A stretch of 64,000 nucleotides of DNA from an uncultured delta proteobacterium (GTDB lineage: Bacteria; Desulfobacterota; Desulfobulbia; Desulfobulbales; JAGXFP01): NCBI GenBank assembly GCA_963807225.1, contig CAWEAD010000008.1:200586-264585 (forward strand), in the 5' to 3' direction. Position numbers and translations under genes: made by a program. Positions within the stretch are counted from its first letter, which is position 1, and every line of letters begins with the position of its first letter. Below the pieces are notes generated by a model that was not told the origin of the DNA, searched no databases, and saw only the letters and a list, made by a program, of their open reading frames with translations. Below are positions 3,904 to 35,377 of this stretch, piece after piece.

Positions 3904-4069
3904 TTTTTTCTCCTCTTGTTGGTCCGTACGCTTCCTGTTTAGGAAGGGCGGATGTTGACCGGTTAAAATTTAACTAAAGTTCGAAATATAACACAGGTGT
4001 CCGGCAATTGATACCCGGGATGGGATTTTTGGGGGTTTTTCGCGCAGATTGAGGTTCGGAGCTGGAGCG

Positions 4070-8924: not shown

Positions 8925-9608
8925 TTATTTTTTCAGATTGAACAGATCCCTTAAAAGGTTGAGTCCCCCATAGACGACCATTCGGTCGCCGGCCAGGATT
9001 TCTTCGGTGGCCTTGGGGACCGGCAGCCATTTCCCTTCCCGTTCAATGCCCAGAACCAACAAGCCCTTGGCGGTCAGACGGCAGCCTGCCAGGGTCTTGC
9101 CGACTAATTCCGATTCGACGCCAATCGGCGCCTTAACCAATCCGTAACCTTCGATAAGGTGCAGGAGTTCTTCCGCCGGCGCCTCTTCGAAGGCGGGCGA
9201 TTTGATCAGCCGGGCCTCGATAAACCTTTCCCAGAGACCGATGATCTTCTGCCCGGTCATGAGCTTATAAATCAGGAACAGACCAAGCAACAGCAAGCCA
9301 CCGTTGAGCAGGGCGCCGGAACCGGTGCTGAAGATCATCGACGAGGTGGTGGTGACGATCACCGTCACCACCCCGGCGTTACCCAGAATCATCAGCCAGA
9401 TGATGATCTTGCGCCTGGTCGGGTGATTGATCACCGCTTCCGATTCCCGGGTCGTGAAGCCGGTGCCACTGAAAGCCGAAAGGGCCTGGAAGCGGGCGCG
9501 GTTCTCGTCCAGTCCGGTAAGCATCAGACCGATGGCGGCAGCCCGAACCACCAGAAATGAAACCAGGACGGTGACCAGAGTGGGAATGATAAAATAGATA
9601 CCGTTAAT
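8925..9608 (-). CDS. membrane protein with a TrkH/KtrB-like pore-loop motif and C-terminal TrkA-C (RCK_C) domain; probable non-canonical ATT start
   Basis: RFQALSAFSGTGFTT pore-loop-like motif between TM helices. The C-terminal segment GYGLVKAPIGVESELVGKTLAGCRLTAKGLLVLGIEREGKWLPVPKATEEILAGDRMVVYG is an RCK_C fold pattern. The first TM helix (INGIYFIIPTLVTVLVSFLVV) lies upstream of the first canonical start (GTG 9551). GGAGG plus a 6-nt spacer plus ATT is at 9608. Confidence 0.6.
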   Translation of the reverse strand: MNGIYFIIPTLVTVLVSFLVVRAAAIGLMLTGLDENRARFQALSAFSGTGFTTRESEAVINHPTRRKIIIWLMILGNAGVVTVIVTTTSSMIFSTGSGALLNGGLLLLGLFLIYKLMTGQKIIGLWERFIEARLIKSPAFEEAPAEELLHLIEGYGLVKAPIGVESELVGKTLAGCRLTAKGLLVLGIEREGKWLPVPKATEEILAGDRMVVYGGLNLLRDLFNLKK

Positions 9609-9841
9609 GGCACACCTCCGTTTTCGGTTATGGGGGCAATTTCCAGCCTTTCCCGATTCTAACTGAATTTGGCAGGGATTTCATCGATTCCCGAGGGCTG
9701 ACAGCAATGCCGGACCGTGTGCCGATCGCTGGCGCTCAGCATGAGAAACTTCTGGCGAAGATCAAGCCGGTTTTGCTTCTAAGCATTTCTTATCTCCTTG
9801 TTTTAAGTCGATAAAAAATATACCTACGGAAAATTTTTTTG

Positions 9842-9906
9842 TTGCAATCGGACTGACGGCTATTTATCATGGGGTGAAAGTGGAGCAAAAGGGTTTCTTT
9901 GTGGAA
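9842..9906 (+). promoter_or_regulatory. sigma70-type promoter plus phased G-rich repeats (candidate MraZ operator) for the mraZ-ftsA-ftsZ-like operon
   Basis: -35 TTGCAA (9842-9847), 17-nt spacer, -10 TATCAT (9865-9870), with an A/T-rich UP-like tract at 9811-9841. Pentamers TGGGG (9870), TGGAG (9881), GGGTT (9891) and TGGAA (9902) are phased at 10-11 bp. Confidence 0.5.
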
Positions 9907-9940
9907 TATATGCCCTGAGTAGGGTGGGAGATTGGCGGGA

Positions 9941-10433: not shown

Positions 10434-11684
10434 ATGCTGACCAGACATACCAATATCACCACGGTCAACGTCGGTTCCGCCAATACCACGGCGGTGATCG
10501 CCGAGGTCGATAACGAAGGGCGGGCCGGCTTGCTGGGCTACGGGCAATGTGCCAGCGCCGGTTTGAGTGACGACTTGATCACCGATATCCGGGAACTGGG
10601 CAGGGCTATCGCGGAATGTGTCGGCCAGGCGGAAGAGATGGCGAAACAAAGCAGCGGACCTCTGATTCTGGCCATCGGCGGCGAACATGTTCGGATCTTG
10701 AACAGTCGGGACGGCATTGCCCTTAATCCGGGCGACGATGAACACCGCTCACGGAATATTACCCGGCAGGATATCAAAAAGGTTCTGGAAAAAGCCGGAA
10801 AGGTAATGCTGGCCATGGACTTGGAGCAGTTGCATGTCCTGCCGGTCAGTTTTCTGGTGGACGGCCGCCGGGTTAAAAATCCGGAAGGCATTGGCGGCAA
10901 CAGGCTGGATGTTGAGGTGCTGGTCATCGCCGGCCGGCAGACGATCATGCGGTCCCTGATGAAGGCTGCCGAATTTGGCGGCTACCGGGTGCGAAAGTTC
11001 TGTTATCGCCCATTGGCAACTTCCCGGGCCGTACTGAGTCTTGATGAACTTGACCGGGGAGCCTGTCTGATCGACATCGGCGGCCGCCATACCGATATTG
11101 CCCTTTTCAAGGAAAACCGGCTGCTTTATTCCTCGACCCTGGTACTGGGCGGCGCCAACATTACTTCGGATACCGGGCAGCTGCTGGCTATCAATCAGCA
11201 GGAAGCTGAAAAGATAAAATTGAAATATGGTTATTGCGGCACCCTGGCCGGAGAAGACCTGAAATTTCAGTTGAGCGGTGTGGGTGGCGATGGAGCCCTC
11301 TGGCGCCTGGTCCGAAAATCGGCCTTGGGAGTCGGCGTTATTCAGCCTCGGGTCGAGGAAATTTTCGACGAGTCGGTGGCGGCGCTGAAAGGCTACCTAG
11401 GCCGCGAACAGTGGACGGGCTGCGCGGCCTTGACGGGTGGAACTTCACAGCTTCCGGGAATCCGGGAACTGGCCAGGGCTAGATTACCGTTTATGGTAAA
11501 TGCCGGTAAAAATATCGTCTTTGACAATCTCGATGAAGAGTCCTCTCGGCCGGAATATGCCACGGTCCTGGGAATGGTGGCCTACGATACGGAGCAGCGT
11601 CTGAGCAGGCGTGAAGAGGTGCGTGATAATCCGATTACGCGCTGGTGCGACAAGATAATCAGACAAATCCACACGGTTTTGTAA
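10434..11684 (+). CDS. ftsA: FtsA-like actin-fold protein (divergent), 416 aa
   Basis: Actin/HSP70-fold phosphate motifs VNVGSANTTAVIAEV, LIDIGGRHTDIALF and LTGGTSQLPGIRELA. The C-terminal amphipathic tail ITRWCDKIIRQIHTVL is analogous to the FtsA membrane-targeting helix. Confidence 0.75.
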   Translation: MLTRHTNITTVNVGSANTTAVIAEVDNEGRAGLLGYGQCASAGLSDDLITDIRELGRAIAECVGQAEEMAKQSSGPLILAIGGEHVRILNSRDGIALNPGDDEHRSRNITRQDIKKVLEKAGKVMLAMDLEQLHVLPVSFLVDGRRVKNPEGIGGNRLDVEVLVIAGRQTIMRSLMKAAEFGGYRVRKFCYRPLATSRAVLSLDELDRGACLIDIGGRHTDIALFKENRLLYSSTLVLGGANITSDTGQLLAINQQEAEKIKLKYGYCGTLAGEDLKFQLSGVGGDGALWRLVRKSALGVGVIQPRVEEIFDESVAALKGYLGREQWTGCAALTGGTSQLPGIRELARARLPFMVNAGKNIVFDNLDEESSRPEYATVLGMVAYDTEQRLSRREEVRDNPITRWCDKIIRQIHTVL

Positions 11685-11706: not shown

Positions 11707-13104
11707 ATGACGTCTGAAAACAACGGTTATAACTTCTCCCTGACCGAGTGCGGAAGTTCCACCAGGATGGTGGCTCTGGGCATCGGCGGTATGGGTAGCA
11801 ATGCCATGGAAAACCTGGCTCGGGCCGGTATCGATGGTATGGAACTTTTTTCCCTGAATACCGACCGTCAAGCCCTGGCTCATTGCCGGGGCAGCCAGCC
11901 GGTGCAGATTGGTGACAAGCGGACTGGCGGCAAGGGGGCCGGTGGCAACAGCGATGTGGGGCGGTTGTCGGCCGAAGACGATGTCGAGAAAATCCGCGGG
12001 ATCGTCAAGGGCGCCGAATTGGTCTTTATCGCCTCGGGTATGGGCGGAGGTACCGGTACCGGAGCGGCACCGGTAATCGCCAAGCTCTGCCGCGAACTCG
12101 GGATCATGTGTATCGGTACAGTGACTATGCCGCTCTCCTGTGAAGGTAGCAAAAGGAATGAGAAGGCAAGGGTCGGACTCGAAGAATTGCGGCAGCAAGT
12201 CGACTCTCTGTTGATAATTGAAAATGAAAACCTCCTGGCGGTTATGGGTGAGGAAGATGTCTCTATTAAGGAGGCTTTTCAGCAGGCCGATAACGTGCTG
12301 GTCAAATCGGTCAAGGCCATAACCACGATTATCGATGCCCACGGCTATATTAATCTGGACCTGGCCGACCTGCGCAACGTCCTGCAGCGGGGAGACAGTG
12401 AAAGAGGGGTCGATGCCTTTATCGGGATAGGAGAAGCCACCGGTGAAGACAGGGCCGTGCGGGCGGCGGATCTGGCCTTGCGCAATCCGCTGCTGCGACA
12501 GATCGATATCATGGGCGCTACCAACCTGCTGATCAATGTTGCCGGCAGCGAGGAGATGGGCCAGCGGGAGGCCATGCAGGCGGTTAAATGCGTGGTGGAT
12601 CGGGCCGGCGACCTGGATCGGGAAATATTCATGGGAGTTGTCACCGATAACTCCCTGGGAGATTCTCTCAGTGTCACTATCATAGCCACCGGTTTGCCTG
12701 ACGGCAATGGCCGGGTTATTCCCCTGGCCCGGGGGAATGCTGACCAATCGGAACTGATCATTGCGCCCGATAACCTTGAGATTCAGGCAACTGGTGCCAG
12801 TGCCTTGATGGGTCTGGTCGAAGAAGTAGCCGAGTCGGGTCATCCCTCGGCGATGGCGGAGATTGGCGGAGAAGTTGCATCATGCGCTCCGGATGGATTG
12901 GGGCGTTCCCCCTTGATCTGCAAAGTCGATTGGCAGACACCGGCCTATTTACGACGACGGAGTATAGCCAGGACGGCCGAAGCCGCGACCCCGGTTCCCA
13001 AGCTTAATAAAGCTGTCAGCCGCAATCGTGCTCCCGATAGCCATACCACATGCCTGGTAACGGGGAACCGCCCTTTTAGGCAACCCCTGTATAATCTAGC
13101 CTGA
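11707..13104 (+). CDS. ftsZ: FtsZ/tubulin-family GTPase (divergent), 465 aa
   Basis: Tubulin signature GMGGGTGTGAAP, T7 loop NLDLADL, NTDRQAL, VDSLLIIENENLL. Roughly 35-40% identity to E. coli FtsZ by eye. An internal PAYLRRR motif resembles the FtsA-binding C-terminal peptide. Confidence 0.85.
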   Translation: MTSENNGYNFSLTECGSSTRMVALGIGGMGSNAMENLARAGIDGMELFSLNTDRQALAHCRGSQPVQIGDKRTGGKGAGGNSDVGRLSAEDDVEKIRGIVKGAELVFIASGMGGGTGTGAAPVIAKLCRELGIMCIGTVTMPLSCEGSKRNEKARVGLEELRQQVDSLLIIENENLLAVMGEEDVSIKEAFQQADNVLVKSVKAITTIIDAHGYINLDLADLRNVLQRGDSERGVDAFIGIGEATGEDRAVRAADLALRNPLLRQIDIMGATNLLINVAGSEEMGQREAMQAVKCVVDRAGDLDREIFMGVVTDNSLGDSLSVTIIATGLPDGNGRVIPLARGNADQSELIIAPDNLEIQATGASALMGLVEEVAESGHPSAMAEIGGEVASCAPDGLGRSPLICKVDWQTPAYLRRRSIARTAEAATPVPKLNKAVSRNRAPDSHTTCLVTGNRPFRQPLYNLA

Positions 13105-13349
13105 GGCCAAATCCTCCTCCTCCTGGCTGCGTGGCCTGTTGCACCTATCTCTTAGTTGTCTCAGGCTACGCAGCCAGGCCTTACCCTCCAACACCAACAA
13201 CCGGCCGGCATTAGACCTTGGCAGATTGCTCGAACCGGTGTACGCCTGTCTTGAACAATTACACTTAAAAACGGTTCTGACCGGTTGCCAATGGCTTAAG
13301 GGATATAACCTTTCAGCTATTGATCGAGTCGGAAAGAGACGAAGTCGGT

Positions 13350-14657
13350 ATGCTAGAGAACCCCAGGACAGGATTGCTTAAAGCAATATTCAACCGGCGG
13401 ATGTTGATATGTCTGTTCAACGGACTGGCCGCGGGGATGCCGCTTTTCTTTCTCTACCATTTAATCCCGGCCTGGTTGCGGAGCGAGAATGTCGATCTGA
13501 AAACAATCGGTCTGTTTTCCCTGGTCGGTATCCCCTACACCTGGAAGTTTCTCTGGTCGCCGCTGATGGACCGGTTCTCGCTCCCCTTTCTTGGGCGGCG
13601 GCGCGGTTGGATGCTACTTACCCAACTGGTCCTGCTCGGTACCATGATGTCGATAGGACTTCTCCACCCTGCCCACCAGATTCTGTTGATTGCCGCCATG
13701 GCGGTGGTTGTGGCTTTTTTTTCGGCGAGCCAGGACATCGTTCTGGATGCCTACCGGCGGGAATTGTTACCGGATAACGAACTGGGGTTGGGTAATTCCA
13801 TGTACGTCAATGGATACCGGGCCGCAGTCTTCATTCCTGGCGGTCTGGGTCTGATTTTGGCCGATCATTTAAGCTGGCCGCTGGTCTTTATGGTTATCGG
13901 CGCCTTCATGCTGATCGCCATCGCAAAAACCCTATTGATCAAAGAAGCTTATACCAGCGTGGCCCAGCCGGTAACCCTGGCCGCGGCCGTGGTCAAACCT
14001 TTTCGGGAATTTTTCGGCCGGGAAGGGGGTGTCAGGCAGGCGCTCCTGATTCTGGCTTTTCTCTTCTTCTACAAGTTGGGCGACAACATGGCGACCGCCT
14101 TGTCAACTCCGTTTTATCTCGATTTGGGATTTTCTAAAACCATCATCGGATCAATGGTTAAATTAGTGAATTTCTGGGCGATGCTGGTTGGCTCTTTTAT
14201 CGGTGGCGCAATGATATATAGAATCGGCATCAACCGGTCGCTCTGGGCTTTCGGACTGGTACAGATGCTGTCTATTCTGGGTTTTGCCTGGTTGGCCGAG
14301 GTCGGCGACAATGTCGTGTTATTGGGAGGGGTGATCGGTTTTGAGTATTTGGGGGTCGGACTGGGGACGGCGGCCCTGGTAGCCTACATGGCCCGGTTAA
14401 CCAACAAGGATTTCACCGCCACCCAATTCGCCCTGCTTTCCAGCCTGGTTGCACTGCCCCGCAGTTTCGCTAATGCCAGCACAGGATTTCTGGTCGAAGG
14501 TATCAAGGCCGGTGATGGGATATACTTCAAGATTTTCGGAGCCTGGAATGGGCTGGGATATAGCCGGTTTTTCATCTTCTGCACCATTTGCGCCATTCCC
14601 GGAATGATATTGTTGAAGTGGGTCGCACCCTGGCCCGACAGGGGACAACGTAAATAA
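13350..14657 (+). CDS. ampG: AmpG-family MFS permease (muropeptide transporter)
   Basis: GLAAGMPLFFLYHLIPAWLRSENVDLKTIGLFSLVGIPYTWKFLWSPLMDRF is the hallmark AmpG N-terminus. About 12-14 TM helices. ATG at 13350 lies within an ORF that opens at TTG 13320. Confidence 0.85.
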   Translation: MLENPRTGLLKAIFNRRMLICLFNGLAAGMPLFFLYHLIPAWLRSENVDLKTIGLFSLVGIPYTWKFLWSPLMDRFSLPFLGRRRGWMLLTQLVLLGTMMSIGLLHPAHQILLIAAMAVVVAFFSASQDIVLDAYRRELLPDNELGLGNSMYVNGYRAAVFIPGGLGLILADHLSWPLVFMVIGAFMLIAIAKTLLIKEAYTSVAQPVTLAAAVVKPFREFFGREGGVRQALLILAFLFFYKLGDNMATALSTPFYLDLGFSKTIIGSMVKLVNFWAMLVGSFIGGAMIYRIGINRSLWAFGLVQMLSILGFAWLAEVGDNVVLLGGVIGFEYLGVGLGTAALVAYMARLTNKDFTATQFALLSSLVALPRSFANASTGFLVEGIKAGDGIYFKIFGAWNGLGYSRFFIFCTICAIPGMILLKWVAPWPDRGQRK

Positions 14658-24155: not shown

Positions 24156-25289
24156 CTATAGTTTGCCCAGGACCGACCACATGATGCCGGCGGCGATAGC
24201 CGAGCCGATCACCCCGGCCACGTTGGGGGCCATGGCATGCATCAGCAGGAAGTTTTCCGGATCTTCTTTCTGGCCAACCATCTGCACCACCCGGGCCGAG
24301 TCTGGTACGGCCGAGACTCCGGCGGCGCCGATCAGCGGGTTGATCTTCTCTTTCAGGAAAAGATTCATGAATTTGGCGAAGAGCACTCCGCCCATGGTGG
24401 CTATCACGAAGGAGAAGGCGCCCAGTCCGAAGATCAACATCGACTTGGGGGTCAGGAAGGTCTGGGCCTGGGTGGAGGCGCCGACCGTGAAGCCCAGGAG
24501 GATGGTGACGATATCGATCAGGGCGTTGCGTGCGGTCTTGGCCAGCCGCTCGGTCACTGTGCTTTCCTTCAACAGGTTACCGAAGAAGAGCATGCCGAGC
24601 AGGGTCATCGAACCAGGGGCGATCAGGGCGCAGACCAGGAAGGCAACGATGGGGAAAATGACCTTCTCCCTCTTGGAGACGATCCGGGGGGGCTTCATCC
24701 TGATCAGCCGTTCCTCCTTGCTGGTCAGCAGGTACATGACCGGAGGCTGGATCACCGGCACCAGAGCCATATAAGAGTATGCTGCAATGGCAATAGGGCC
24801 CAGGAGATCCGGGGCCAGCATTGATGCCAGGAAGATGGCGGTCGGGCCGTCGGCCCCGCCGATGATGCCGATTGCCCCGGCCTGGGCGGCGGAAAAGCCC
24901 AGGAGCAGCGAACCCAGCAGGGTGATGAAGATGCCGAGCTGGGCGGCGGCCCCCAGCAGGATCAGCTTCGGGTTCGAAAGCATGGTGGAGAAATCGGTCA
25001 TCGCCCCGATACCAAGGAAAATCAGGGGCGGATAGATGCCCTTGACCACCCCGAAGTAGAGGTAGGAGAGGGCGCTGCCGGAGTCGTAAACACTCAGCGC
25101 CATACCGTTGATAGGCGGGATGTTGCCGACCAGGATGCCAAAGCCGATGGGCACCAGTAGGAGCGGCTCGTAATCCTTGGTGATGGCCAGGAAGATGAAG
25201 ATGATCCCGATCAGGATCATCATCCCGTTGCCCCATTCCAGGGAAGCGAAACCGGAGTTTTTAAGAAAGGACAGGCTTTCCAGATTCAC
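24156..25289 (-). CDS. mmdB: Na+-translocating decarboxylase beta subunit (OadB/MmdB/GcdB family)
   Basis: 377-aa polytopic membrane protein. GIGAMTDFSTMLSNPKLILLGAAAQLGIF and AAGVSAVPDSARV match the OadB family. It is the last gene of the methylmalonyl-CoA operon. Confidence 0.85.
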   Translation of the reverse strand: MNLESLSFLKNSGFASLEWGNGMMILIGIIFIFLAITKDYEPLLLVPIGFGILVGNIPPINGMALSVYDSGSALSYLYFGVVKGIYPPLIFLGIGAMTDFSTMLSNPKLILLGAAAQLGIFITLLGSLLLGFSAAQAGAIGIIGGADGPTAIFLASMLAPDLLGPIAIAAYSYMALVPVIQPPVMYLLTSKEERLIRMKPPRIVSKREKVIFPIVAFLVCALIAPGSMTLLGMLFFGNLLKESTVTERLAKTARNALIDIVTILLGFTVGASTQAQTFLTPKSMLIFGLGAFSFVIATMGGVLFAKFMNLFLKEKINPLIGAAGVSAVPDSARVVQMVGQKEDPENFLLMHAMAPNVAGVIGSAIAAGIMWSVLGKL

Positions 25290-25305
25290 GGTTTGACTGC
25301 CTCGC

Positions 25306-25740
25306 TCATTCGATGATCACCAGTTCCTGGCCCTGATTGACGGTATCGCCGTCGCGGACCAGGATCTTCTTGACGATGCCCTCGTGCTTGGCATTGATCT
25401 TATTTTCCAACTTCATGGCCTCCATGATCAGGAGCTTCTGGCCGGCGGCGACCCGGTCGCCTTCCCGCACGAAGATTGATTTGATCTGTCCGGGCATGGG
25501 CGCGGTGATGGCGCCGTCACCGGTTCGCGTCACCGGTTGGCGGTAGGTAGGGGGCTGCCGGGAAGGGGTTTCTGCGGCGCCAAGTTGCGAGATTGGTTGG
25601 GGCAGGGAAAGGTTTTTGATGGCCTGGATTTCGACCAGATGGTCGTGGCCGTTGACCTCAACCTGGATATCCCGGGGGGTGACGTTCTTGATCACCACTT
25701 CGTAGAGCCGCTCATTGATCTTCAATTCATATTTCTTCAT
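25306..25740 (-). CDS. mmdC: biotin carboxyl-carrier subunit (MmdC/OadA-C-terminal type)
   Basis: C-terminal biotinyl domain ITAPMPGQIKSIFVREGDRVAAGQKLLIMEAMKLENKI with the (E)AMK biotinylation motif. Confidence 0.85.
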   Translation of the reverse strand: MKKYELKINERLYEVVIKNVTPRDIQVEVNGHDHLVEIQAIKNLSLPQPISQLGAAETPSRQPPTYRQPVTRTGDGAITAPMPGQIKSIFVREGDRVAAGQKLLIMEAMKLENKINAKHEGIVKKILVRDGDTVNQGQELVIIE

Positions 25741-25746
25741 GACCTT

Positions 25747-26154
25747 CTATCTCCTGGGCGGGCTGAGCCGGCCGTGCAGGTTCATGGCTTCGAAGCGTCC
25801 GGCCCGCTGCCATGAGGAATCCCAGAGCTCGTGGCGCTTCCAGGTGATCTTCCGGTTGTCGTGGCTGCTGAACTGATGCAGGTGCAGGGCTACGGCTACC
25901 GCCAGCAGGGTCTCGGTGTCGAGCAGTTCTCCCGTCGGAGTTCCGCCTGCGGCATCAACCGGCCGAGCCCTAGGCAGGGCACTATTCTTCAGGTGGCTGG
26001 CCCAGAACAGCAGTTTGGGCAGCAGGGCGATATAGATGGCGATCACCCCCAGACCGATAAAGACGACAATCATTCCCACCAGGCTGAATTCCAGGGCATT
26101 GAAGCGGGAATCGACCAGACTGGCGAAATTCGGTTGTATAAAGTTGAAGTCCAC
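25747..26154 (-). CDS. OadG-like small membrane subunit of the decarboxylase (MmdD/OadG-type anchor)
   Basis: Single N-terminal TM LVGMIVVFIGLGVIAIYIALL as in the OadG family. It sits between the carboxyltransferase and biotin-carrier genes. The C-terminal half is not recognised. Confidence 0.55.
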   Translation of the reverse strand: MDFNFIQPNFASLVDSRFNALEFSLVGMIVVFIGLGVIAIYIALLPKLLFWASHLKNSALPRARPVDAAGGTPTGELLDTETLLAVAVALHLHQFSSHDNRKITWKRHELWDSSWQRAGRFEAMNLHGRLSPPRR

Positions 26155-26165
26155 GCGCTACTCCT

Positions 26166-27706
<1,541 letters not shown>

Positions 27707-27710
<4 letters not shown>

Positions 27711-28132
27711 TCGTCGTGCTCCTTATCTCTCCCGGCTGGAGAGCAGAATTCGGTCAGTACGCCGTGGCTGGACTTCGGGTGGAGAAAGGCCACTTGTTTA
27801 CCCCCGGCCCCGATAATCGGCGTTTCGTTGATCAGTCGACAGCCGGCCGCTGCCGCCCGGGACAGTTGCTCGTCGAGAGCATCGGTCCGGTAGGCCACGT
27901 GATGGATACCCTCGCCCCGAGTTTCCAAAAACTTGGCGATGGGGCTGTCCGGCGCGGTCGGCTCCAATAGTTCAATGTGTACCTCGCCGACCCGGTAAAA
28001 GGCGGTGCGCACCTTTTGGCTCGCCACCTCCTCGATTTTTTCGCAGACCAAACCTAGCACATTTTCATAAAATAGTCCGGCCTTTTCCAGACTGTGTACG
28101 GCGATTCCCAGATGATCGATCTTGGTCAGCAT
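27707..28132 (-). CDS. mce: methylmalonyl-CoA epimerase (VOC/glyoxalase fold)
   Basis: [27 protein letters not shown]...[12 protein letters not shown]...[14 protein letters not shown] is a typical epimerase pattern. 4-nt overlap with mmdA. Confidence 0.85.
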
Positions 28133-28144
28133 ATTCTTTCCTCG

Positions 28145-29797
28145 TTAATCCCGATATTCCCCAAAGACCTCTCTTAAAACTCCGCAGATCTCGCCCAGGC
28201 TGGCGTAAGTTCGCACCGCCGCCAGAATCGGTTCCATGAGATTGGTTTCACCGGTTGCCGCCTCTCTCAGTAAGGACAGGGACTCGGCCACTCTAACTTG
28301 GTCACGTTCACTCTTAACCCGGGTCAGCCCGGCCACCTGTTGTTCTTCCACCGCCGGTTCAATCTTCAATCGTGGCGGTCTTTTCCCCTCTTCGCTCTGA
28401 AAGCGGTTGACTCCTACGATGACGCGTTCACCGGACTCTATTTCCTGCTGGTAGTCGTAGGCGGCACTCTCAATCTGCCGCTTAATGAAACCGTCTTCGA
28501 TGCAGGGGATAACCCCGCCTTTCTCGTCGATTTTCCTGATCAGTTCACGGGCCTCGTTCTCGATCCGGTCGGTTAGTTGCTCGAGATAATAGGAGCCGGC
28601 CAGTGGGTCGATGGTATCGGCCACCCCGGACTCATGGGCGATAATCTGTTGGGTGCGCAGCGCGGTGCGCACCGAGTCCTCGGTCGGCAGGGACAGGGCC
28701 TCGTCGCGCGAATTGGTGTGCAACGACTGGGTGCCGCCCAAGACAGCGGCCAGGGCCTGAATAGTGACCCGGACAATGTTGTTGTCAATCTGTTGGGCGG
28801 TCAGGGTATGGCCGGCGGTCTGGGTATGGAAGCGCAGCATCAGGCTCGCCGGCTTGCGGGCTCCGAAGCGTTCTTTCATCAGCCGGGCCCAGAGGCGGCG
28901 GGCGGCCCTGAATTTGGCCACTTCCTCAAGAAGATTCGAGGAGGCGTTGAAGAAAAAGGCCAGACGCGGAGCGAAGAGATCTACGTCCAGTCCGGCGTCC
29001 ATGGCGGCCTGGACGTAGGTGCAGCCATTGGCAAGGGTCAGGGCCACCTCCTGGATGGCGGTGGCACCGGCCTCGCGGATATGGTAACCGGAGATGGAAA
29101 TGGTATTGAAGGTCGGGGTGTTGGCGGAACACCAGCGGAAGATGTCGGTGATCAGCCGCAGGCTGGGGCGCGGCGGGAAAATATAGGTGCCGCGGGCCAC
29201 GTATTCCTTGAGAATGTCGTTCTGGATAGTGCCGCTCAGTTTCTCCCTGGCCACCCCCTGTTTCTCCGCCACCGCCACATACATGGCCAGTAGTATGGCG
29301 GCCGGGGAGTTGATGGTCATGGAGGTGGAGACCTTGTCCAGCGGAATGTCGGCGAAGAGGTTTTCCAGGTCGGCCAGGGTATCAATGGCCACCCCGACCT
29401 TACCAACCTCGCCCGTGCTTTGCGGGGCATCAGAATCATAGCCGATCTGGGTCGGCAGATCGAAGGCCACCGACAGTCCGGTAGTTCCCTGGTCGAGTAG
29501 GAAACGGAAGCGGCGGTTGGTTTCGGCGGCGGTGGAAAAACCGGCATACTGGCGCATGGTCCAAAGCCGGCCCCGATGCATGGTCGGCTGAACTCCGCGG
29601 GTATAAGGGTACTGACCAGGGAATCCAAGTTGCTCCAGGTAACTCTCGTCAATTTCCGCGGGCACGGACAGTCTGGGCACCTCCGTGCCGCCATGGTAGG
29701 TAAATTTCTTCCGCCGTTCGGGGAAACGCTCAAGGCTTTTACGCAATTCGTTTTCGCGCCACTGGCGGTAGCGCTGGTGCTCACTCATCTTATTCAC
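28145..29797 (-). CDS. methylmalonyl-CoA mutase, large catalytic (TIM-barrel) subunit without B12 domain
   Basis: 550 aa. [44 protein letters not shown] and [13 protein letters not shown] are MCM N-terminal-domain motifs. Confidence 0.9.
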
Positions 29798-30732
29798 CTT
29801 TTCTGCCCGGTCAAACCGGCAACCAGATTACCGGCTAACTGCCGGGGATCTTCGCTGGTCCAGGATTCAGCCGGGCCCAGCATCTTTTCCAAGCGGGGTC
29901 GCAACATCTCCAAGGCCCAGTCCACCACCTCCAGACGTTGGGCGCGACTCCTTTTGGCCTGGTGTTCGCCGCTTTGCCGCCGACCGGCGTCAAGTCGGTC
30001 GAGGGTGGCGGCCAATTCGGCAACCCCGATATTTTCGCTGGCGGTGGTCATACTGACCCGGGGAAGTGAATCCGGTAGGGCAGGGCGGTCGCGAGTGGCG
30101 GTTTCCAAGTCCAGGGCCAGGGCTTCGGCGCCCGGACAATCCGCTTTGTTAATCACCAGCAGATCGGCCACTTCCAGCAGACCGGCCTTCATGGCCTGGA
30201 TATCATCGCCTTGGCCGGGTGCGACCACCAGGGCAGTGAGATCGGCCAGCCTGACAATGTCCATCTCCGACTGGCCGACACCAACCGTCTCGATGATAAT
30301 CACCGAGCAGCCGGCCGCGGCCAGCACCCGGACCGTAGCGCCGGCTGCGGCGCAGAGTCCGCCCAAGCGTCCTCGAGTTGCCATGGAGCGCATGACCACA
30401 TCATGATCAAGCGCGTGATCCATCATCCTGATCCGGTCGCCCAGCAAGGCGCCGCCGGAAAGCGGCGAACTGGGGTCGATGGCTACCACGCCGACCCGTT
30501 CGCCCTGACGGCGATAATGGCCGATGAGCCGGCCAGTCAGGGTAGACTTGCCGGCACCGGGAGGACCGGTTATCCCGTACACTCTGGCCTGAGCGATCAG
30601 CCCCCGGTCCAGGCCGGCCAGGATCTTTCCCGTCTCGGGGGCGCCGCTTTCGATCAGGGAGATGGCCCGGGCGATGGCTCGCGGATCGCGGCGCCGCACT
30701 CCGTCAATGAGGGTGGCAGGGGTTGGCATCAT
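29794..30732 (-). CDS. meaB: methylmalonyl-CoA mutase-associated GTPase MeaB (ArgK family)
   Basis: P-loop [27 protein letters not shown]. Located between the two mutase subunit genes. Confidence 0.9.
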
Positions 30733-30734
30733 TA

Positions 30735-31322
30735 CTACCGGGTCTGCCGGTGGTGTGCGGCGCAGGCCTCCCGGAAGGCAGCCAGGATGGTTTCGATGGG
30801 AGTGCCGGGGGTGAAGATCGCCCGGATGCCGGCCGCTAGCAGAACGTCGATTTCTTCCTCAGGGATGATGCCGCCACCGAGGACCGGGATGTCGGCAGCG
30901 CCGATGGCGCGCAAGGCTTCAATCACTGCAGGAAATAATCGGCTGTGCCCACCGGAAAGGGAAGAGAGGCCGACGGCCGCCACATCCTCCTGAACGGCGG
31001 CGGCGGCGATTTCCTCCGGGGTACGGCGAATGCCGGTATAGATCACCTCGAAGCCGGCGTCGCGCAGAGCCCGGGCAATGAACTTTGCCCCGCGGTCATG
31101 GCCGTCCAGGCCTGGTTTGCCGATCAGGACCCGATATCGAATGGGTTCGCCGGACGCCGAATCTGCTTCGTTATCGGGCCGGTCACATACCGGAGTATAG
31201 TGACCGGACCCCTGCCTCGCATCTTCAGCCCCCTGCGAGCCCATTCCGCTTTGCAGCTTTTCATTTTCGTCAGGGATATTATCCTGGGCAGCTTTATGAT
31301 ATTTACGGTTGGAATCTCTCAT
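30735..31322 (-). CDS. methylmalonyl-CoA mutase small subunit (cobalamin-binding domain) with an acidic N-terminal extension
   Basis: [34 protein letters not shown] carries the DxHxxG B12-binding motif. About 55 residues of low-complexity sequence precede it, with no closer canonical start. Confidence 0.85.
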
Positions 31323-31342
31323 GATGCTACTCCGTAAAGAGT

Positions 31343-32218
31343 TTAGGCCGGTTCAAAAATATCTTTACACATCCGACCCAGGCGGCCCAGGTCACGGCAG
31401 ACTTTAATGCCGGCCCCTTCCAGGGCTGCAATCTTGGCGGTGGCGGTGGTGGAGGCGCCGCTGACAATGGCCCCGGCATGGCCCATACGGCGGCCGGGCG
31501 GGGCGGTGAGTCCGGCGATGAAACCGACTACCGGCTTGCGCATCCGGGCGGCCACGAAGGCGGCGGCTTCTTCTTCGGCGTTGCCGCCGATTTCGCCGAC
31601 CAATACTACTCCGGTAGTCTCGGGATCTTCTTCAAAGGCGGCCAGGCAGTCGATGAAGCCGGTGCCGACCACCGGATCGCCGCCGATTCCGACGCAGGTC
31701 GATTGGCCCAGACCCTCGCGGGTTAGTTGATGCACTACCTCATAGGTCAAGGTGCCGGAGCGGGAAATCACCCCGATGCTACCCCGACTGTGGATGGCGC
31801 CGGGCATGATTCCGGCCTTGCTCAAGCCTGGCGAAATTAACCCGGGACAGTTGGGGCCGATAAGTCGAGATGGGGTCCCGGCCAGGAATTTTTTGACCTT
31901 AAGCATGTCGAGGATCGGGATGCCCTCGGTGATGGCGACGATTATGGGGATCTCCGCCGCCGCGGCCTCCAGGATGGCATCTGCGGCGAAGAGGGGTGGG
32001 ACGAAGATCAACGAGCAGTTGGCCCCTGTGGATGCAGCCGCCTCTTGCACGGTGTCGAATACCGGGATATCGTCCACCTCCTGACCGCCTTTGCCCGGGG
32101 TAACTCCGGCCACCACGCAGGTGCCGTAATCCCGGCATTGCCTGGAGTGGAACTGCCCCTCGCGTCCGGTGATGCCTTGGACCAGGAGGCGGGTCTGTTG
32201 ATCGATGAAAATGCTCAT
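31343..32218 (-). CDS. sucD: succinate--CoA ligase (ADP-forming) alpha subunit
   Basis: [24 protein letters not shown] start. [22 protein letters not shown] and MGHAGAIV (phosphohistidine loop). ATGA overlap with the sucC stop. The longer ORF-track model (to 32419) runs inside sucC. Confidence 0.9.
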
Positions 32219-33390
32219 GCCCGGCTCCCGGAGTTGACGATGTCGGCAATCTTGGCGGCCGCATCGGTCAGGTCGGCCGCGGTGATCAGGGCCAGGCCGG
32301 ACTCGGCCAGGATCCTGCGGCCCTCTTCGACGTTGGTGCCTTCCATGCGGATCACCACCGGCACGTTGATCTGGCTGTTTCGGGCGGCTTGGACAATCCC
32401 TTCGGCCAGGATATCGCAACGGAGGATACCGCCGAAGATGTTGATCAGAATCCCTTGCACTTTTGGGTCAGAGAGTATGATCCGGAAGCCCTCTTCGATC
32501 ATTGCGGCGCTGGCTCCGCCGCCCACATCCAGAAAATTGGCCGGTTCGCCGCCGGCCTGCTTGATCAGGTCCATGGTGGCCATGGCCAGACCGGCGCCGT
32601 TGACCATGTTGCCGATATTGCCGTCCAGGTTGATATAGTTGAGCCCGACCTTGGCGGCCGCCAGCTCCAAAGGGTCTTCCTCGGCCTCGTCGCGCCAGGC
32701 CGCCAGTTCCGGGTGGCGCGAAAGACCGTTGTCGTCCAGATCGATCTTGGCGTCCAGGGCGACCAGCTGTCCGCCACCGGTGACCACCAGGGGGTTGATC
32801 TCGATCAGTGAACAGTCGTTTTCCAGGAGGAGGCGAAAAAGCCCGGTCAGAATCGCGGCAAACTGGCGATGCAGGCTGGGCTGCAGACCCAGGGCGAAGG
32901 CGACCTGGCGGCAGTGAAAAGGTTGCAGGGAAAGCAGGGGGTCGACCCTGACCTTGACGATTTTATCCGGGGTGGCCTTGGCTACCGACTCGATGTCCAT
33001 GCCACCGGACTGGCTGGCCAAGATCAAGAGCGAGCCGGTGGCGCGTTCGGGAATAATACTCAAGTATAGTTCGCGGGCGAGATCCAGCCCTTGCTCGATC
33101 AGGAGGCGGCCGACTTTCTTGCCGGCTGGTCCGGTCTGGGCGGTAACCAGGGGCGAGGCCAGGATGGAGGCGGCGGCCTCCTCCGCTTCCATCTCGGTCG
33201 CGGCGATTCTAACCCCGCCGCCCTTGCCGCGGCCGCCGGCATGGATCTGGGCCTTGACCACAACCGGGTAGACCCCCAACTTTCGGGCGGCCTCCCTCGC
33301 CTCGGTAACGCTGGTGGCCGTGAAGCCCTCCGGTACCGGCAGCAAGTAGCGGCGGAAGAGTTCCTTGGCTTGATATTCGTGGAGCTTCAT
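32215..33390 (-). CDS. sucC: succinate--CoA ligase (ADP-forming) beta subunit
   Basis: [15 protein letters not shown]..., [41 protein letters not shown]. Confidence 0.9.
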
Positions 33391-33478
33391 TGATTTATCC
33401 CATTCAGGTGACCTGAGACCTGCTCCTTAAGCAGCCTCGATTACAGTTCCCTAGTTTCGCACGGTAAGGGAATCTGAC

Positions 33479-35377
33479 TCAACCTTTTTTGGGATAGCCC
33501 ATGCCTTTAAGAGTTTCGGTGATCTCGTCGATGATGGCCGGATCATCGATGGTCGAGGGCAGTCGGTACTCTTTGCCGTTGGAGATGGCGCGCATGGTGC
33601 CACGCAGGATCTTGCCGGATCGGGTTTTGGGCAGCCGGTGGATCTGGGCCGATTCACGGAAACAGGCGATGGGGCCGATCTGGTCGCGGACCATTTTGAC
33701 CAGTTCCTGCTTGATCTCCTCCGGATTTTTGTCTATCCCGGACTTGAGGACGAAAAAGCCCAGGGGCAGTTCGCCCTTGAGCTGGTCGTGGGTGCCGATC
33801 ACCGCGCACTCAGCGATGGCCGGGTGGGTGGCGATGATCTCCTCCATTTCCCCGGTCGAGAGGCGGTGGCCGGCGATGTTGATGACGTCATCCATCCGGC
33901 CCATGACATAGACGTAACCGTCAGCGTCGATGTAGCCGCCGTCGCTGGTCTCGTAGTAGCCGGGGAAATGGCTCATGTAGGAACTGATGAAACGGTCGTC
34001 GTTATGCCAGAGAGTGGCCAGGGTGCCGGGTGGCAGAGGCAGCCGAATGACGATGTTGCCTTCCTGGCCGGCCGGGAGTTCCTGGCCCTGGTTGTCGAGG
34101 ATTCTAACATCGTAGCCCGGCGCCGGTTTTGTGGGGGAGCCGGGTTTGACCGGGAATTCTTCGATGCCGCGGCAGTTGGCGACGATGGCCCAGCCGGTCT
34201 CGGTCTGCCACCAGTGGTCGATAACCGGGCGCTGTAAGAGGTTGCGAGCCCAGTGGTAAGTATCCGGGTCAAGACGTTCACCGGCCAGGTAGAGAGCCTC
34301 GAATTTGCCGAGGTCGTAGCGGCGACAGAAATCGCCGTTGGAGTCTTCCTTCTTGATGGCCCGGAAGGCGGTGGGGGCGGTGAACAGCACTTTGACGCCG
34401 TATTCGCTGATTACCCGCCAGAAAGCGCCGGCGTCCGGGGTGCCGATCGGTTTGCCTTCGTAGATAATGGTGGTGCAGCCCCGCAGCAGCGGACCGTAGA
34501 CGATATAGGAGTGACCGACCACCCAGCCCACGTCGGAGGCGGCCCAGAAGACATCGCCGGCCTCGACGTTGTAAATGTTCTTCATCGACCAGTGCAGGGC
34601 TACGGCGTGCCCGCCGTTGTCTCGCAGCACTCCCTTGGGCATACCGGTGGTGCCGGAGGTGTAAAGGATGTACAGCGGGTCAGTGGCCTTGACCGGTACA
34701 CAGGGGGCGGGCTGGGCGTTTTGTACCAACTCCTGCCAGTCCAGGTCGCGGCCGGGGATCAGGTCGGCGCGAACGAAGTCACGCTGGAAGACGATGCATT
34801 TTTCTGGTTGGTGCTGGGACTGTTCGATGGCCGAGTCGATCAGGGGTTTATAGGCCAGATGTTTCTTGCCTTCGATGGCTCCCGAGGCGATGACCAGCAG
34901 TTTGGGACGGGCATGGTCGATACGGATGGCCAATTCATGGGCGGCGAAACCGCCGAAGACCACCGAGTGGATGGCGCCGAGCCTGGCGCAGGCCAGCATG
35001 GCAACGGCCGCCTCGGGAATCATCGGCATATAGATGATCACCGTGTCACCCTTGGCTACTCCCTGGGCTTTCAGGCCGCCGGCGAAGGCGGCGACCTGGT
35101 CCCGTAGCTCGGTGTAAGTAATCTTGGCCTTGGTATCGGTGACCGGACTGTCGTAAATGATCGCAACCTGTTCGCCCCGGCCATTTTCGACGTGCCGATC
35201 GACGGCGTTGTAACAGGTATTCAACTCTCCGCCGGCGAACCAGTGGTAGAAGGGGGGATTGGCGCCATCCAGTACTTTGTCGAAAGGTCGGTGCCATTCG
35301 ATGCCTTCGGCGGCCCGGCTCCAAAACTGTTCAGGATTATAAATGCTTTCCCGGTATACTTCGTCGTACAGTCCCAT
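33479..35377 (-). CDS. prpE: AMP-forming acyl-CoA synthetase, propionate--CoA ligase type
   Basis: 632 aa. YTSGTTGMPKG AMP-binding motif. The N-terminus YDEVYRESIYNPEQFWSRAAEGIEWHRPF and C-terminal LPKTRSGKILR match the Acs/PrpE family. The PrpE assignment is partly from operon context. Confidence 0.75.
   Translation of the reverse strand: MGLYDEVYRESIYNPEQFWSRAAEGIEWHRPFDKVLDGANPPFYHWFAGGELNTCYNAVDRHVENGRGEQVAIIYDSPVTDTKAKITYTELRDQVAAFAGGLKAQGVAKGDTVIIYMPMIPEAAVAMLACARLGAIHSVVFGGFAAHELAIRIDHARPKLLVIASGAIEGKKHLAYKPLIDSAIEQSQHQPEKCIVFQRDFVRADLIPGRDLDWQELVQNAQPAPCVPVKATDPLYILYTSGTTGMPKGVLRDNGGHAVALHWSMKNIYNVEAGDVFWAASDVGWVVGHSYIVYGPLLRGCTTIIYEGKPIGTPDAGAFWRVISEYGVKVLFTAPTAFRAIKKEDSNGDFCRRYDLGKFEALYLAGERLDPDTYHWARNLLQRPVIDHWWQTETGWAIVANCRGIEEFPVKPGSPTKPAPGYDVRILDNQGQELPAGQEGNIVIRLPLPPGTLATLWHNDDRFISSYMSHFPGYYETSDGGYIDADGYVYVMGRMDDVINIAGHRLSTGEMEEIIATHPAIAECAVIGTHDQLKGELPLGFFVLKSGIDKNPEEIKQELVKMVRDQIGPIACFRESAQIHRLPKTRSGKILRGTMRAISNGKEYRLPSTIDDPAIIDEITETLKGMGYPKKG

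Follow-up and report, generated by a model that had tools for sequence, protein, structure and literature searches.

In model organisms ftsZ is found 10-15 genes downstream of mraZ, and MraZ influences division indirectly, through FtsL in Bacillus subtilis and through read-through in Escherichia coli. The physiology of MraZ is still debated. In Mycoplasma genitalium, MraZ boxes consist of GTG(G/T) followed by N6, in an AAAGTG(T/G) form; cryo-electron microscopy complexes show a box contacted by K13, R15 and R86, which are held by D11 and D82, and mutating the boxes leads to a stepwise loss of repression (PMC12957436). MraZ of B. subtilis binds three GTGG[A/T]G repeats with 4-nucleotide (nt) spacers, which are required for repression and form a triple repeat that is unique in the genome (bioRxiv 10.1101/2022.02.09.479790). 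In E. coli K-12 we read the mra promoter, Pmra, directly: TTGACA and TAAACT are separated by 18 nt, GTGGG stands at positions 291, 301 and 311, AGGGG at 320, and mraZ starts at 335. Here we describe a site of this kind in a 64,000-nt stretch of DNA (the window) from an uncultured delta proteobacterium of the Desulfobulbales (contig CAWEAD010000008.1, positions 200,586 to 264,585), upstream of a divergent mraZ-like gene.

Could MraZ, in this organism, govern ftsA and ftsZ directly? We propose, with a probability of about three in four, that positions 9834-9905 of the window comprise a sigma-70-type promoter and a four-box MraZ operator, through which the MraZ of the operon represses its own operon. 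Autorepression by occupancy of the -10 element, the transcription start and the early leader is the best-supported reading. It builds on the array and its uniqueness in the window, on the conservation and phasing of the boxes, on the fold and contact residues of the protein, and on the layout shared with E. coli.

Phased boxes at the promoter of a mraZ-like gene

The 390-nt gap that contains the array is bounded on one side by a TrkA_C-domain gene (8925-9551, minus strand, divergently oriented) and on the other by an open reading frame encoding 155 amino acids. The elements that make up the promoter, the array and the first gene are listed below. Conservation refers to orthologous upstream regions (alignment A2, see the next section), and box positions are given relative to the estimated transcription start.

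9834-9840, plus strand: T-run directly 5' of the -35 hexamer, candidate proximal UP-like element; five columns are invariant T (2.0 bits, alignment A2)
9842-9847, plus strand: -35 hexamer TTGCAA, from the promoter scan; TTGC is invariant in 21 sequences
9865-9870, plus strand: -10 hexamer TATCAT, from the promoter scan; TA...T reaches 2.0 bits in class A orthologues
9870-9873, plus strand: box 1, TGGG, near -7; the GG at 9872-9873 is invariant
9877, plus strand: estimated transcription start, an A, 7 nt past the -10 hexamer, from the geometry of the conserved -10
9877-9883, plus strand: box 2, AAAGTGG with core GTGG at 9880-9883, near +4; GG invariant, GT in at least 90%, 1.5-2.0 bits
9888-9894, plus strand: box 3, AAAGGGT with core AGGG at 9890-9893, near +14; AA and a G invariant, GG in at least 90%, 1.2-2.0 bits
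9901-9905, plus strand: box 4, GTGGA, near +25; TGG invariant, G in at least 90%, 1.4-2.0 bits
9941-10408, plus strand: divergent mraZ-like gene, 155 amino acids, recognized by Pfam PF02381, TIGR00242, fold and contact residues

The promoter scan of the window pairs TTGCAA with TATCAT across 17 nt, a combination that matches the consensus at 9 of 12 positions, and transcription would start near 9877. The boxes run head to tail (TGGG at 9870, GTGG at 9880, AGGG at 9890 and GTGG at 9901). With their period of 10/10/11 bp, all four point to the same side of the helix. Box 1 overlaps the last base of the -10 hexamer and the discriminator, and the mraZ-like gene starts 36 nt past the end of box 4 (9905). 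The site thus has the marks of an MraZ operator, namely at least three direct repeats with a GTG(G/T) or TGGG core, a period of about 10 bp, and a position at the promoter of an operon in which mraZ comes first.

For the search, a box was defined as GTGG or [AT]GGG, chained at a spacing of 10-11 bp, on both strands. So defined, exactly one array of at least three boxes occurs in the 64-kb window, and it is also the sole array of at least four: the site at 9870-9905. In 100 dinucleotide-preserving shuffles of the window we counted a mean of 0.03 arrays of at least four boxes and 1.7 of at least three, figures to be taken as a guide and not as a probability, the box definition having been refined after the site was seen. 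The same detector also recovers the experimentally defined operator of E. coli.

A preliminary description of this stretch had placed a -35 element at 9842-9847, a 17-nt spacer and a -10 element at 9865-9870, and our scan returns the same pair of hexamers. Within the A/T-rich, UP-like tract that it marked ahead of the promoter, the T-run at 9834-9840 proves invariant across orthologues. It had further listed TGGGG at 9870, TGGAG at 9881, GGGTT at 9891, TGGAA at 9902 and AAAGTGG at 9877-9883. All of these are correctly located and the array is real and phased, but the repeats are better framed one base over, as the 4-mers GTGG, AGGG and TGGG, with a spacing of 10/10/11 rather than 11/10/11. One more GTGGG, at 9924-9928, was found where it had been reported, but we do not count it as a member of the array: it carries about 0-0.4 bits and overlaps the probable Shine-Dalgarno sequence. 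Since the orthologue alignment shows no conservation at 9917-9926, this GTGGG falls outside the element.

How does the site compare with the operators described so far? Like E. coli Pmra, it joins a sigma-70 promoter to direct repeats of 10-bp period that extend from just past the -10 into the leader, with mraZ as the first gene; even the degenerate fourth repeat of E. coli, AGGGG, has a counterpart in the AGGG of window box 3. Unlike E. coli, which has three exact GTGGG repeats, the window has an exact GTGG in two of its four boxes at a period of 10/10/11, the others being TGGG and the degenerate AGGG. In line with the likeness to MraZ boxes that had been suggested for this site, the array agrees with the E. 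coli operator in core, period, A-rich 5' flank and position at the promoter. The M. genitalium operator likewise has four boxes with A-rich 5' flanks (AAAGTGT/G) and a transcription start within or beside a box, whereas the mollicute core is GTGT and the window cores are GTGG and AGGG. With B. subtilis the site shares the GTGG core and the 10-bp period, and the uniqueness of the triple repeat in that genome parallels the uniqueness of the array in the window. Window box 2, GTGGAG, fits the B. subtilis repeat GTGG[A/T]G exactly, and box 4, GTGGAA, fits it at 5 of 6 positions (the family consensus is GTGGAT).

It is what follows the operator that differs. In E. coli, rsmH, ftsL, ftsI and the mur genes come next, and in B. 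subtilis the repeats precede a full mra operon, in which repression acts through FtsL levels. In contrast, the window operon proceeds directly to ftsA and ftsZ. The M. genitalium operon (mraZ-mraW-ftsA homologue-ftsZ) is similarly short and ends in ftsA/ftsZ; that organism, however, is wall-less, has a reduced genome and keeps mraW (rsmH), whereas the window derives from a walled, Desulfobulbales-type host whose operon lacks rsmH. The proteins have diverged as well, E. coli MraZ and the mraZ-like protein of the window being 22% identical.

Conservation and two promoter-operator registers

We gathered 22 related loci and aligned 21 upstream regions (alignment A2) and, in a further alignment (A4), 18. 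The sequence covered comprises 64 kb of this genome and up to 8.5 kb of each related contig. The columns that are invariant in all 21 sequences of A2 fall in the T-run, the TTGC of the -35, the GG of box 1, the GG of box 2, the AA and a G of box 3, and the TGG of box 4. The other core positions are conserved in at least 90% of the sequences, as is a CC about 10 nt past box 4. Cores carry 1.5-2.0 bits and spacers mostly 0.2-0.8 bits (means of 1.82 and 0.90 bits, respectively), and the autocorrelation of the conservation profile is positive at lags 10 and 11 (+0.32 and +0.26) and negative at lags 4-7. In 167 kb of sequence, window and loci together on both strands, arrays of at least three boxes occur solely upstream of the mraZ-like gene. 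The strict box definition is satisfied in 18 of 23 sequences, again always upstream of that gene.

The orthologous promoters share the sigma-70-type spacing, with a TAnnnT hexamer 16-18 nt past the TTGC in 21/21 sequences (AATAAT in L010), and fall into two classes. In class A (n=14, the window included) the best -10 hexamer (TATCAT, TATTAT, TATGAT and similar) stands 17 nt past the TTGC in 12 of the 14 sequences and 16 or 18 nt past it in the remaining 2; the boxes lie near -7, +4, +14 and +25, with the start estimated 7 nt past the -10. In class B (n=7: L001, L002, L009, L010, L019, L021 and L022) the interval from the -35 to the array has lost 10 nt by deletion, so that the -35 is nearer by one helical turn. 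Here a TATAGT between boxes 1 and 2 (AATAAT in L010) serves as the -10 at a spacing of 18 nt, the boxes lie near -18, -8, +3 and +14, and the operator is shifted one helical turn farther upstream relative to the promoter. The class B site of L001 spans 3912-3965, as against 9842-9905 in the window. Common to both classes are a box that adjoins the -10 on its downstream side and an array that extends across the predicted start, the arrangement that a repressor operator requires.

Is the array older than this group of close relatives? A metagenome contig of high GC content (outgroup P0060, locus L024) encodes an MraZ-like protein that is 41% identical to that of the window. Its gene is preceded by TTGACA-17-TATCTT and five boxes (TGGGG, GTGGG, AGGGG, GTGGT and GTGGA at 284, 295, 305, 315 and 325), spaced by 11, 10, 10 and 10 bp. 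The first three boxes with their spacers closely resemble those of the window (TGGGGGTGAAAGTGGGAGGAAAGGGG vs TGGGGTGAAAGTGGAGCAAAAGGGT). The array region of L024 lies at 256-329. Ahead of its annotated start codon, at 460, the mraZ-like gene has a GC-rich segment of unusual length (about 170 nt), and the contig does not extend far enough to reveal the gene downstream. A second outgroup locus (P0067, L025) lacks boxes, differs in context and is uninformative. The preliminary description would have been abandoned had the repeats been missing upstream of orthologous operons; instead, 21 regions retain the conserved cores and an outgroup carries five boxes.

Four further features flank the promoter and the array.

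9790-9804, plus strand: upstream block TTATCTCCTTGTTTT, family consensus TTA(A/T)CTCC(C/T)TGTTTT; columns at least 70% conserved (alignment A4)
9810-9822, plus strand: A-rich tract GATAAAAAATATA, candidate distal UP-element subsite; A/T-rich in 18/18 orthologues (alignment A4)
9913-9915, plus strand: CCC, about one helical turn past box 4; CC in at least 90% of sequences, 1.4-1.7 bits
9926-9930, plus strand: probable Shine-Dalgarno sequence GGGAG, 10 nt before the ATG; GGAG(G) precedes the start codon in orthologues

The block TTATCTCCTTGTTTT lies at about -87 to -73 from the estimated start, and farther upstream the 18 regions of A4 show no conservation. Together with the A-rich tract, which would act as a distal UP-element subsite, it forms a segment (9790-9822) that is found about 55-90 nt 5' of the estimated start in the 18 orthologues, and that may serve as an UP element or bind some other regulator. 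No clear second promoter was found at 9790-9822. By inspection, we rejected a small divergent reading frame starting from the 9790-9804 block, whose ATG differs between the window and L003, and also a sigma-54 reading of TTGCA, which has no GG 10 nt upstream of the GC. The CCC at 9913-9915 could represent an inverted G-rich element, part of the leader, or an RNA partner of the GG in box 4; no RNA covariation supporting a pairing of this CCC was found.

The MraZ-like protein and the case for autorepression

The product of the first gene matches PF02381 with 47.4 bits (cut-off 23) in two stretches, as the tandem domain of MraZ demands. It stays below the NCBIfam equivalog cut-off, scoring 51.2 bits on TIGR00242 against a required 98.35, where E. 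coli MraZ reaches 227. Aligned with MraZ chains from the PDB, its D15, K17 and R19 correspond to D11, K13 and R15 of M. genitalium MraZ, and its D92 and R96 to D82 and R86. All five residues are invariant in an alignment of 22 family members, which thus keep both DXXXR motifs and the lysine. An AlphaFold2 model (predicted local distance difference test score 91, predicted template-modelling (TM) score 0.83) was compared with the PDB by Foldseek. All 15 significant matches (15/15) are MraZ structures, DNA-bound complexes included, with TM scores of 0.63-0.70 normalized to the query and 0.69-0.76 to the target, and the modelled protein has the MraZ fold. The 155-residue MraZ-like protein of the preliminary description is thus upheld by its PF02381 match, by fold matches to MraZ only, and by its invariant contact residues.

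Relatives of this protein (57, at 53-97% identity) all come from metagenomes or metagenome-assembled genomes (MAGs), those with names being labelled Desulfobulbaceae, Desulfurivibrionaceae, Proteobacteria or Pseudomonadota. In an exhaustive search of representatives the family forms a single, isolated cluster at 50% identity; outside it, identity drops to 35-41% for the nearest full-length relatives and to about 30% for typical MraZ proteins. Because it scores below the TIGR00242 cut-off and stands in this isolated cluster, the protein is, judged by its sequence, a member of a divergent subfamily and not an equivalog.

How might such a protein act on the array? By analogy with the M. genitalium structures, each subunit of the divergent MraZ would bind a single box by way of the beta-sheet cradle (D15/K17/R19, D92/R96), and an opened oligomer would engage the array cooperatively. 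Once bound, it would lie over the edge of the -10, the site where transcription starts and the initial 25-30 bases of the transcript (to about +28), and this coverage would block open-complex formation or promoter escape. The resulting negative autoregulation of mraZ-ftsA-ftsZ would tie FtsA and FtsZ dosage directly to MraZ occupancy.

Several points weigh against this proposal. We infer, from the layout and the protein, that MraZ binds the array, that transcription starts where the -10 predicts, that the outcome is repression rather than activation, and that the local MraZ is the ligand. The direction of the effect is not certain; it is deduced from the geometry and by analogy with the box-dependent repression known from E. 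coli, B. subtilis and M. genitalium, and MraZ of Mycoplasma gallisepticum has been reported as an activator (PMC12957436). The score on TIGR00242 is far below the cut-off (51 vs 98 bits), and the DNA-binding specificity of the protein could have drifted. An exact GTGG is found in no more than two of the four boxes, box 1 being weak in class A (A/C/T-TGG) and box 3 being AGGG, and the definition by which they were counted was refined when the site was already known. Finally, a second, canonical MraZ elsewhere in these genomes could use the boxes.

This last point leads to the most serious alternative, a canonical MraZ encoded elsewhere. The site would then be a genuine MraZ operator whose main ligand, or co-ligand, is the MraZ that heads the cluster for division and the cell wall (dcw) in another part of the genome, an instance of cross-regulation that we consider rather unlikely. 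Its strength is that the box core is generic, GTGG/TGGG being common to E. coli, Bacillus and mollicutes, and that the window is without rsmH, mur genes and ftsQ; the rest of the dcw cluster must therefore lie elsewhere and could carry its own mraZ. The text of a paper on division in cable bacteria (PMC7873302) attributes an E. coli-like dcw cluster to Desulfobulbus species and makes no mention of mraZ. Yet no canonical MraZ has been recovered from these MAGs: a profile search seeded with outgroup MraZ proteins yielded no canonical Desulfobulbales MraZ, and a genome scan gave only two loci, both of the same mraZ-like family. The local protein, moreover, has invariant contact residues and is the most conserved in its operon (78-79% identity, vs 54-62% for FtsA/FtsZ), as would be expected if it co-evolved with the adjacent operator. 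Does the local MraZ, then, bind the array in order to activate? Activation has been reported on overexpression in M. gallisepticum (PMC12957436), but we find it improbable here, since the boxes of both classes extend over the edge of the -10, the predicted +1 and the beginning of the leader. This is the geometry of a repressor, shared with three species in which repression has been measured (E. coli, B. subtilis and M. genitalium).

Other explanations dispense with MraZ altogether. The G-rich elements might act in the leader RNA, as CsrA-type GGA sites or through leader structure, and not as DNA operators. We judge this very improbable, although boxes 2-4 of class A do fall within what is predicted to be the transcribed leader, GGA occurs in boxes 2 and 4, and GTGGAUG at box 4 resembles the CsrA-type RGGAUG. 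The leader folds no better than shuffled sequences (z = -0.54), the alifold consensus of 12 leaders (-0.36 kcal/mol) reveals no conserved structure or covariation, and Rfam at gathering thresholds gives no hit at the leader and only two tRNAs in the window; on these results we rejected a function at the RNA level. In class B, boxes 1 and 2 are situated upstream of the predicted start with sequence and phase unchanged, the best-conserved box, AAAGGG, has no GGA, and strict periodicity at 10-11 bp is characteristic of the DNA helix. A G-quadruplex (G4) that regulates transcription, as proposed for the mraZ promoter of Staphylococcus aureus, where a conserved G4 downstream of PmraZ has been claimed with a G4Hunter threshold of 1.2 (PMC11796246), strikes us as highly improbable. 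The array does score 1.24, just over this threshold. However, scores within the family range from 0.88 to 1.48, 715 other 25-nt stretches of the 64-kb window reach 1.2, boxes 2 and 4 have two Gs only, and no motif of three or more Gs per run occurs except in L011. Nor would a G4 account for the exact period, the A-rich flanks and the conservation of the T in GTGG. We attach least credence of all to the idea that the repeats are due to chance, to residual similarity of close relatives, or to DnaA boxes. The boxes are indeed short and of low information, but only 0.03 four-box arrays are expected. Spacers and flanks have diverged while the cores remain invariant at 53-97% protein identity, and the array is present in the outgroup at 41%. 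As for DnaA, a perfect DnaA box, TGTGGATAA, is made up of box 1 and the -10 in L010 (933-941), and TGTGGAATA at box 4 of the window (9900-9908) is one mismatch away from TGTGNAWAA. From genome to genome, however, such matches occur in different boxes, and most of them contain at least 2 mismatches; since their position is not conserved across the family, we rejected DnaA boxes and take the matches to be probably incidental.

A mraZ-ftsA-ftsZ operon with divergent FtsA and FtsZ

Downstream of the mraZ-like gene the following genes are found.

10434-11684, plus strand: divergent ftsA, 25 nt past the mraZ-like gene; 256 bits on TIGR01174 (cut-off 175.85)
11707-13104, plus strand: divergent ftsZ, 22 nt past ftsA; 299.3 bits on TIGR00065 (cut-off 295.2)
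13320-14657, plus strand: muropeptide permease gene of the ampG family, 215 nt past ftsZ; 474 bits on TIGR00901

The order mraZ-like, ftsA, ftsZ recurs in every related contig of sufficient length, often followed by ampG, which is found downstream in L002, L004, L005, L006, L009, L012, L013 and L020. No consensus promoter or terminator was found in the 215-nt gap between ftsZ and ampG, and co-transcription of ampG with the operon is uncertain. The same gap contains an 11-bp perfect inverted repeat (CCTGGCTGCGT ... ACGCAGCCAGG; 13122-13178) with a 35-nt loop and without a T-run.

The dcw arrangement, in which rsmH (mraW) comes after mraZ, is not seen here: the mraZ-like gene is followed after 25 nt by ftsA. 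The 64-kb window contains no rsmH, ftsL, ftsI, mur genes, ftsW or ftsQ, and the flanks of the related loci contain no rsmH, ftsL, ftsI or mur genes. The rest of the window is occupied by housekeeping genes and genes of the methylmalonyl-CoA pathway. A cluster on the minus strand (24156-35377) encodes the oxaloacetate decarboxylase beta subunit, a carboxyltransferase, methylmalonyl-CoA mutase, MeaB, succinyl-CoA ligase and an acyl-CoA synthetase, and thus fits a propionate-metabolising organism of the Desulfobulbales type. In the literature we found nothing on this mraZ-ftsA-ftsZ operon or on a second FtsZ in Desulfobulbales.

Both division proteins of the operon are divergent. FtsA passes its equivalog cut-off (256 vs 175.85 bits) and FtsZ barely does so (299.3 vs 295.2); the E. 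coli proteins score 536 (FtsA) and 472 (FtsZ). Three members of the family reach 299-317 bits for FtsZ on TIGR00065 and 256-301 bits for FtsA on TIGR01174. FtsZ belongs to an isolated clade of about 57 matches at 47-83% identity, encoded on the same uncultured contigs. Beyond this clade, identity falls to about 40-46%, confined to the GTPase core, and the matches are FtsZ proteins of unrelated phyla; the FtsZ search returned no FtsZ of cultured Desulfobulbales among its matches.

Comparison of the window with the syntenic loci L006 and L020 allows the rates of change to be set side by side. The neighbouring beta-CASP, CorA and AmpG proteins are 70-79% identical and the MraZ-like protein 78-79%, whereas FtsA is 59-62% and FtsZ 54-55% identical overall (68% in the core). 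It follows that the MraZ-like protein is the most conserved of the operon, and that FtsA and FtsZ evolve faster than their neighbours. FtsZ nonetheless looks functional on the evidence of its sequence, because it retains the GGGTGTG and NxDxxD motifs, as aligned with E. coli, and a C-terminal QTPAYLRRR peptide. In its C-terminal region (12700-13104) this peptide, which is of the FtsA-binding type, is followed by about 45 more residues to the stop, which makes for an extension of unusual length. Orthologues show poor conservation of the tail, with 27-58% identity.

What is unusual about this locus is the context: a divergent mraZ stands directly before ftsA-ftsZ, rsmH is missing, and the remainder of the dcw cluster is elsewhere. 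The cis-element itself is a standard MraZ operator, a familiar type of switch in an unfamiliar operon. Could the trio, in one uncultured Desulfobulbales lineage, make up a division module that is self-contained and evolves separately? It may be a paralogous FtsA-FtsZ pair with a dedicated MraZ-type repressor beside a canonical dcw cluster, or the sole, fast-evolving FtsAZ of the cell, split from dcw and under exclusive MraZ control. We offer this notion tentatively and think it somewhat doubtful. If true, in either version MraZ would gate FtsZ and FtsA expression directly.

To specialists the operator alone will be no surprise; the points of interest are the wiring of MraZ to ftsAZ, the shift of register, and the divergent FtsA and FtsZ. 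Phased repeats of the GTGG type can be used to annotate MraZ operators even where a divergent MraZ fails the equivalog models. The two promoter-operator registers would amount to a natural experiment, with ready variants, on how the position of the boxes sets repression. If autorepression is confirmed, the operon would offer a simple natural system for asking whether the core task of MraZ is to set the dosage of FtsZ and FtsA.

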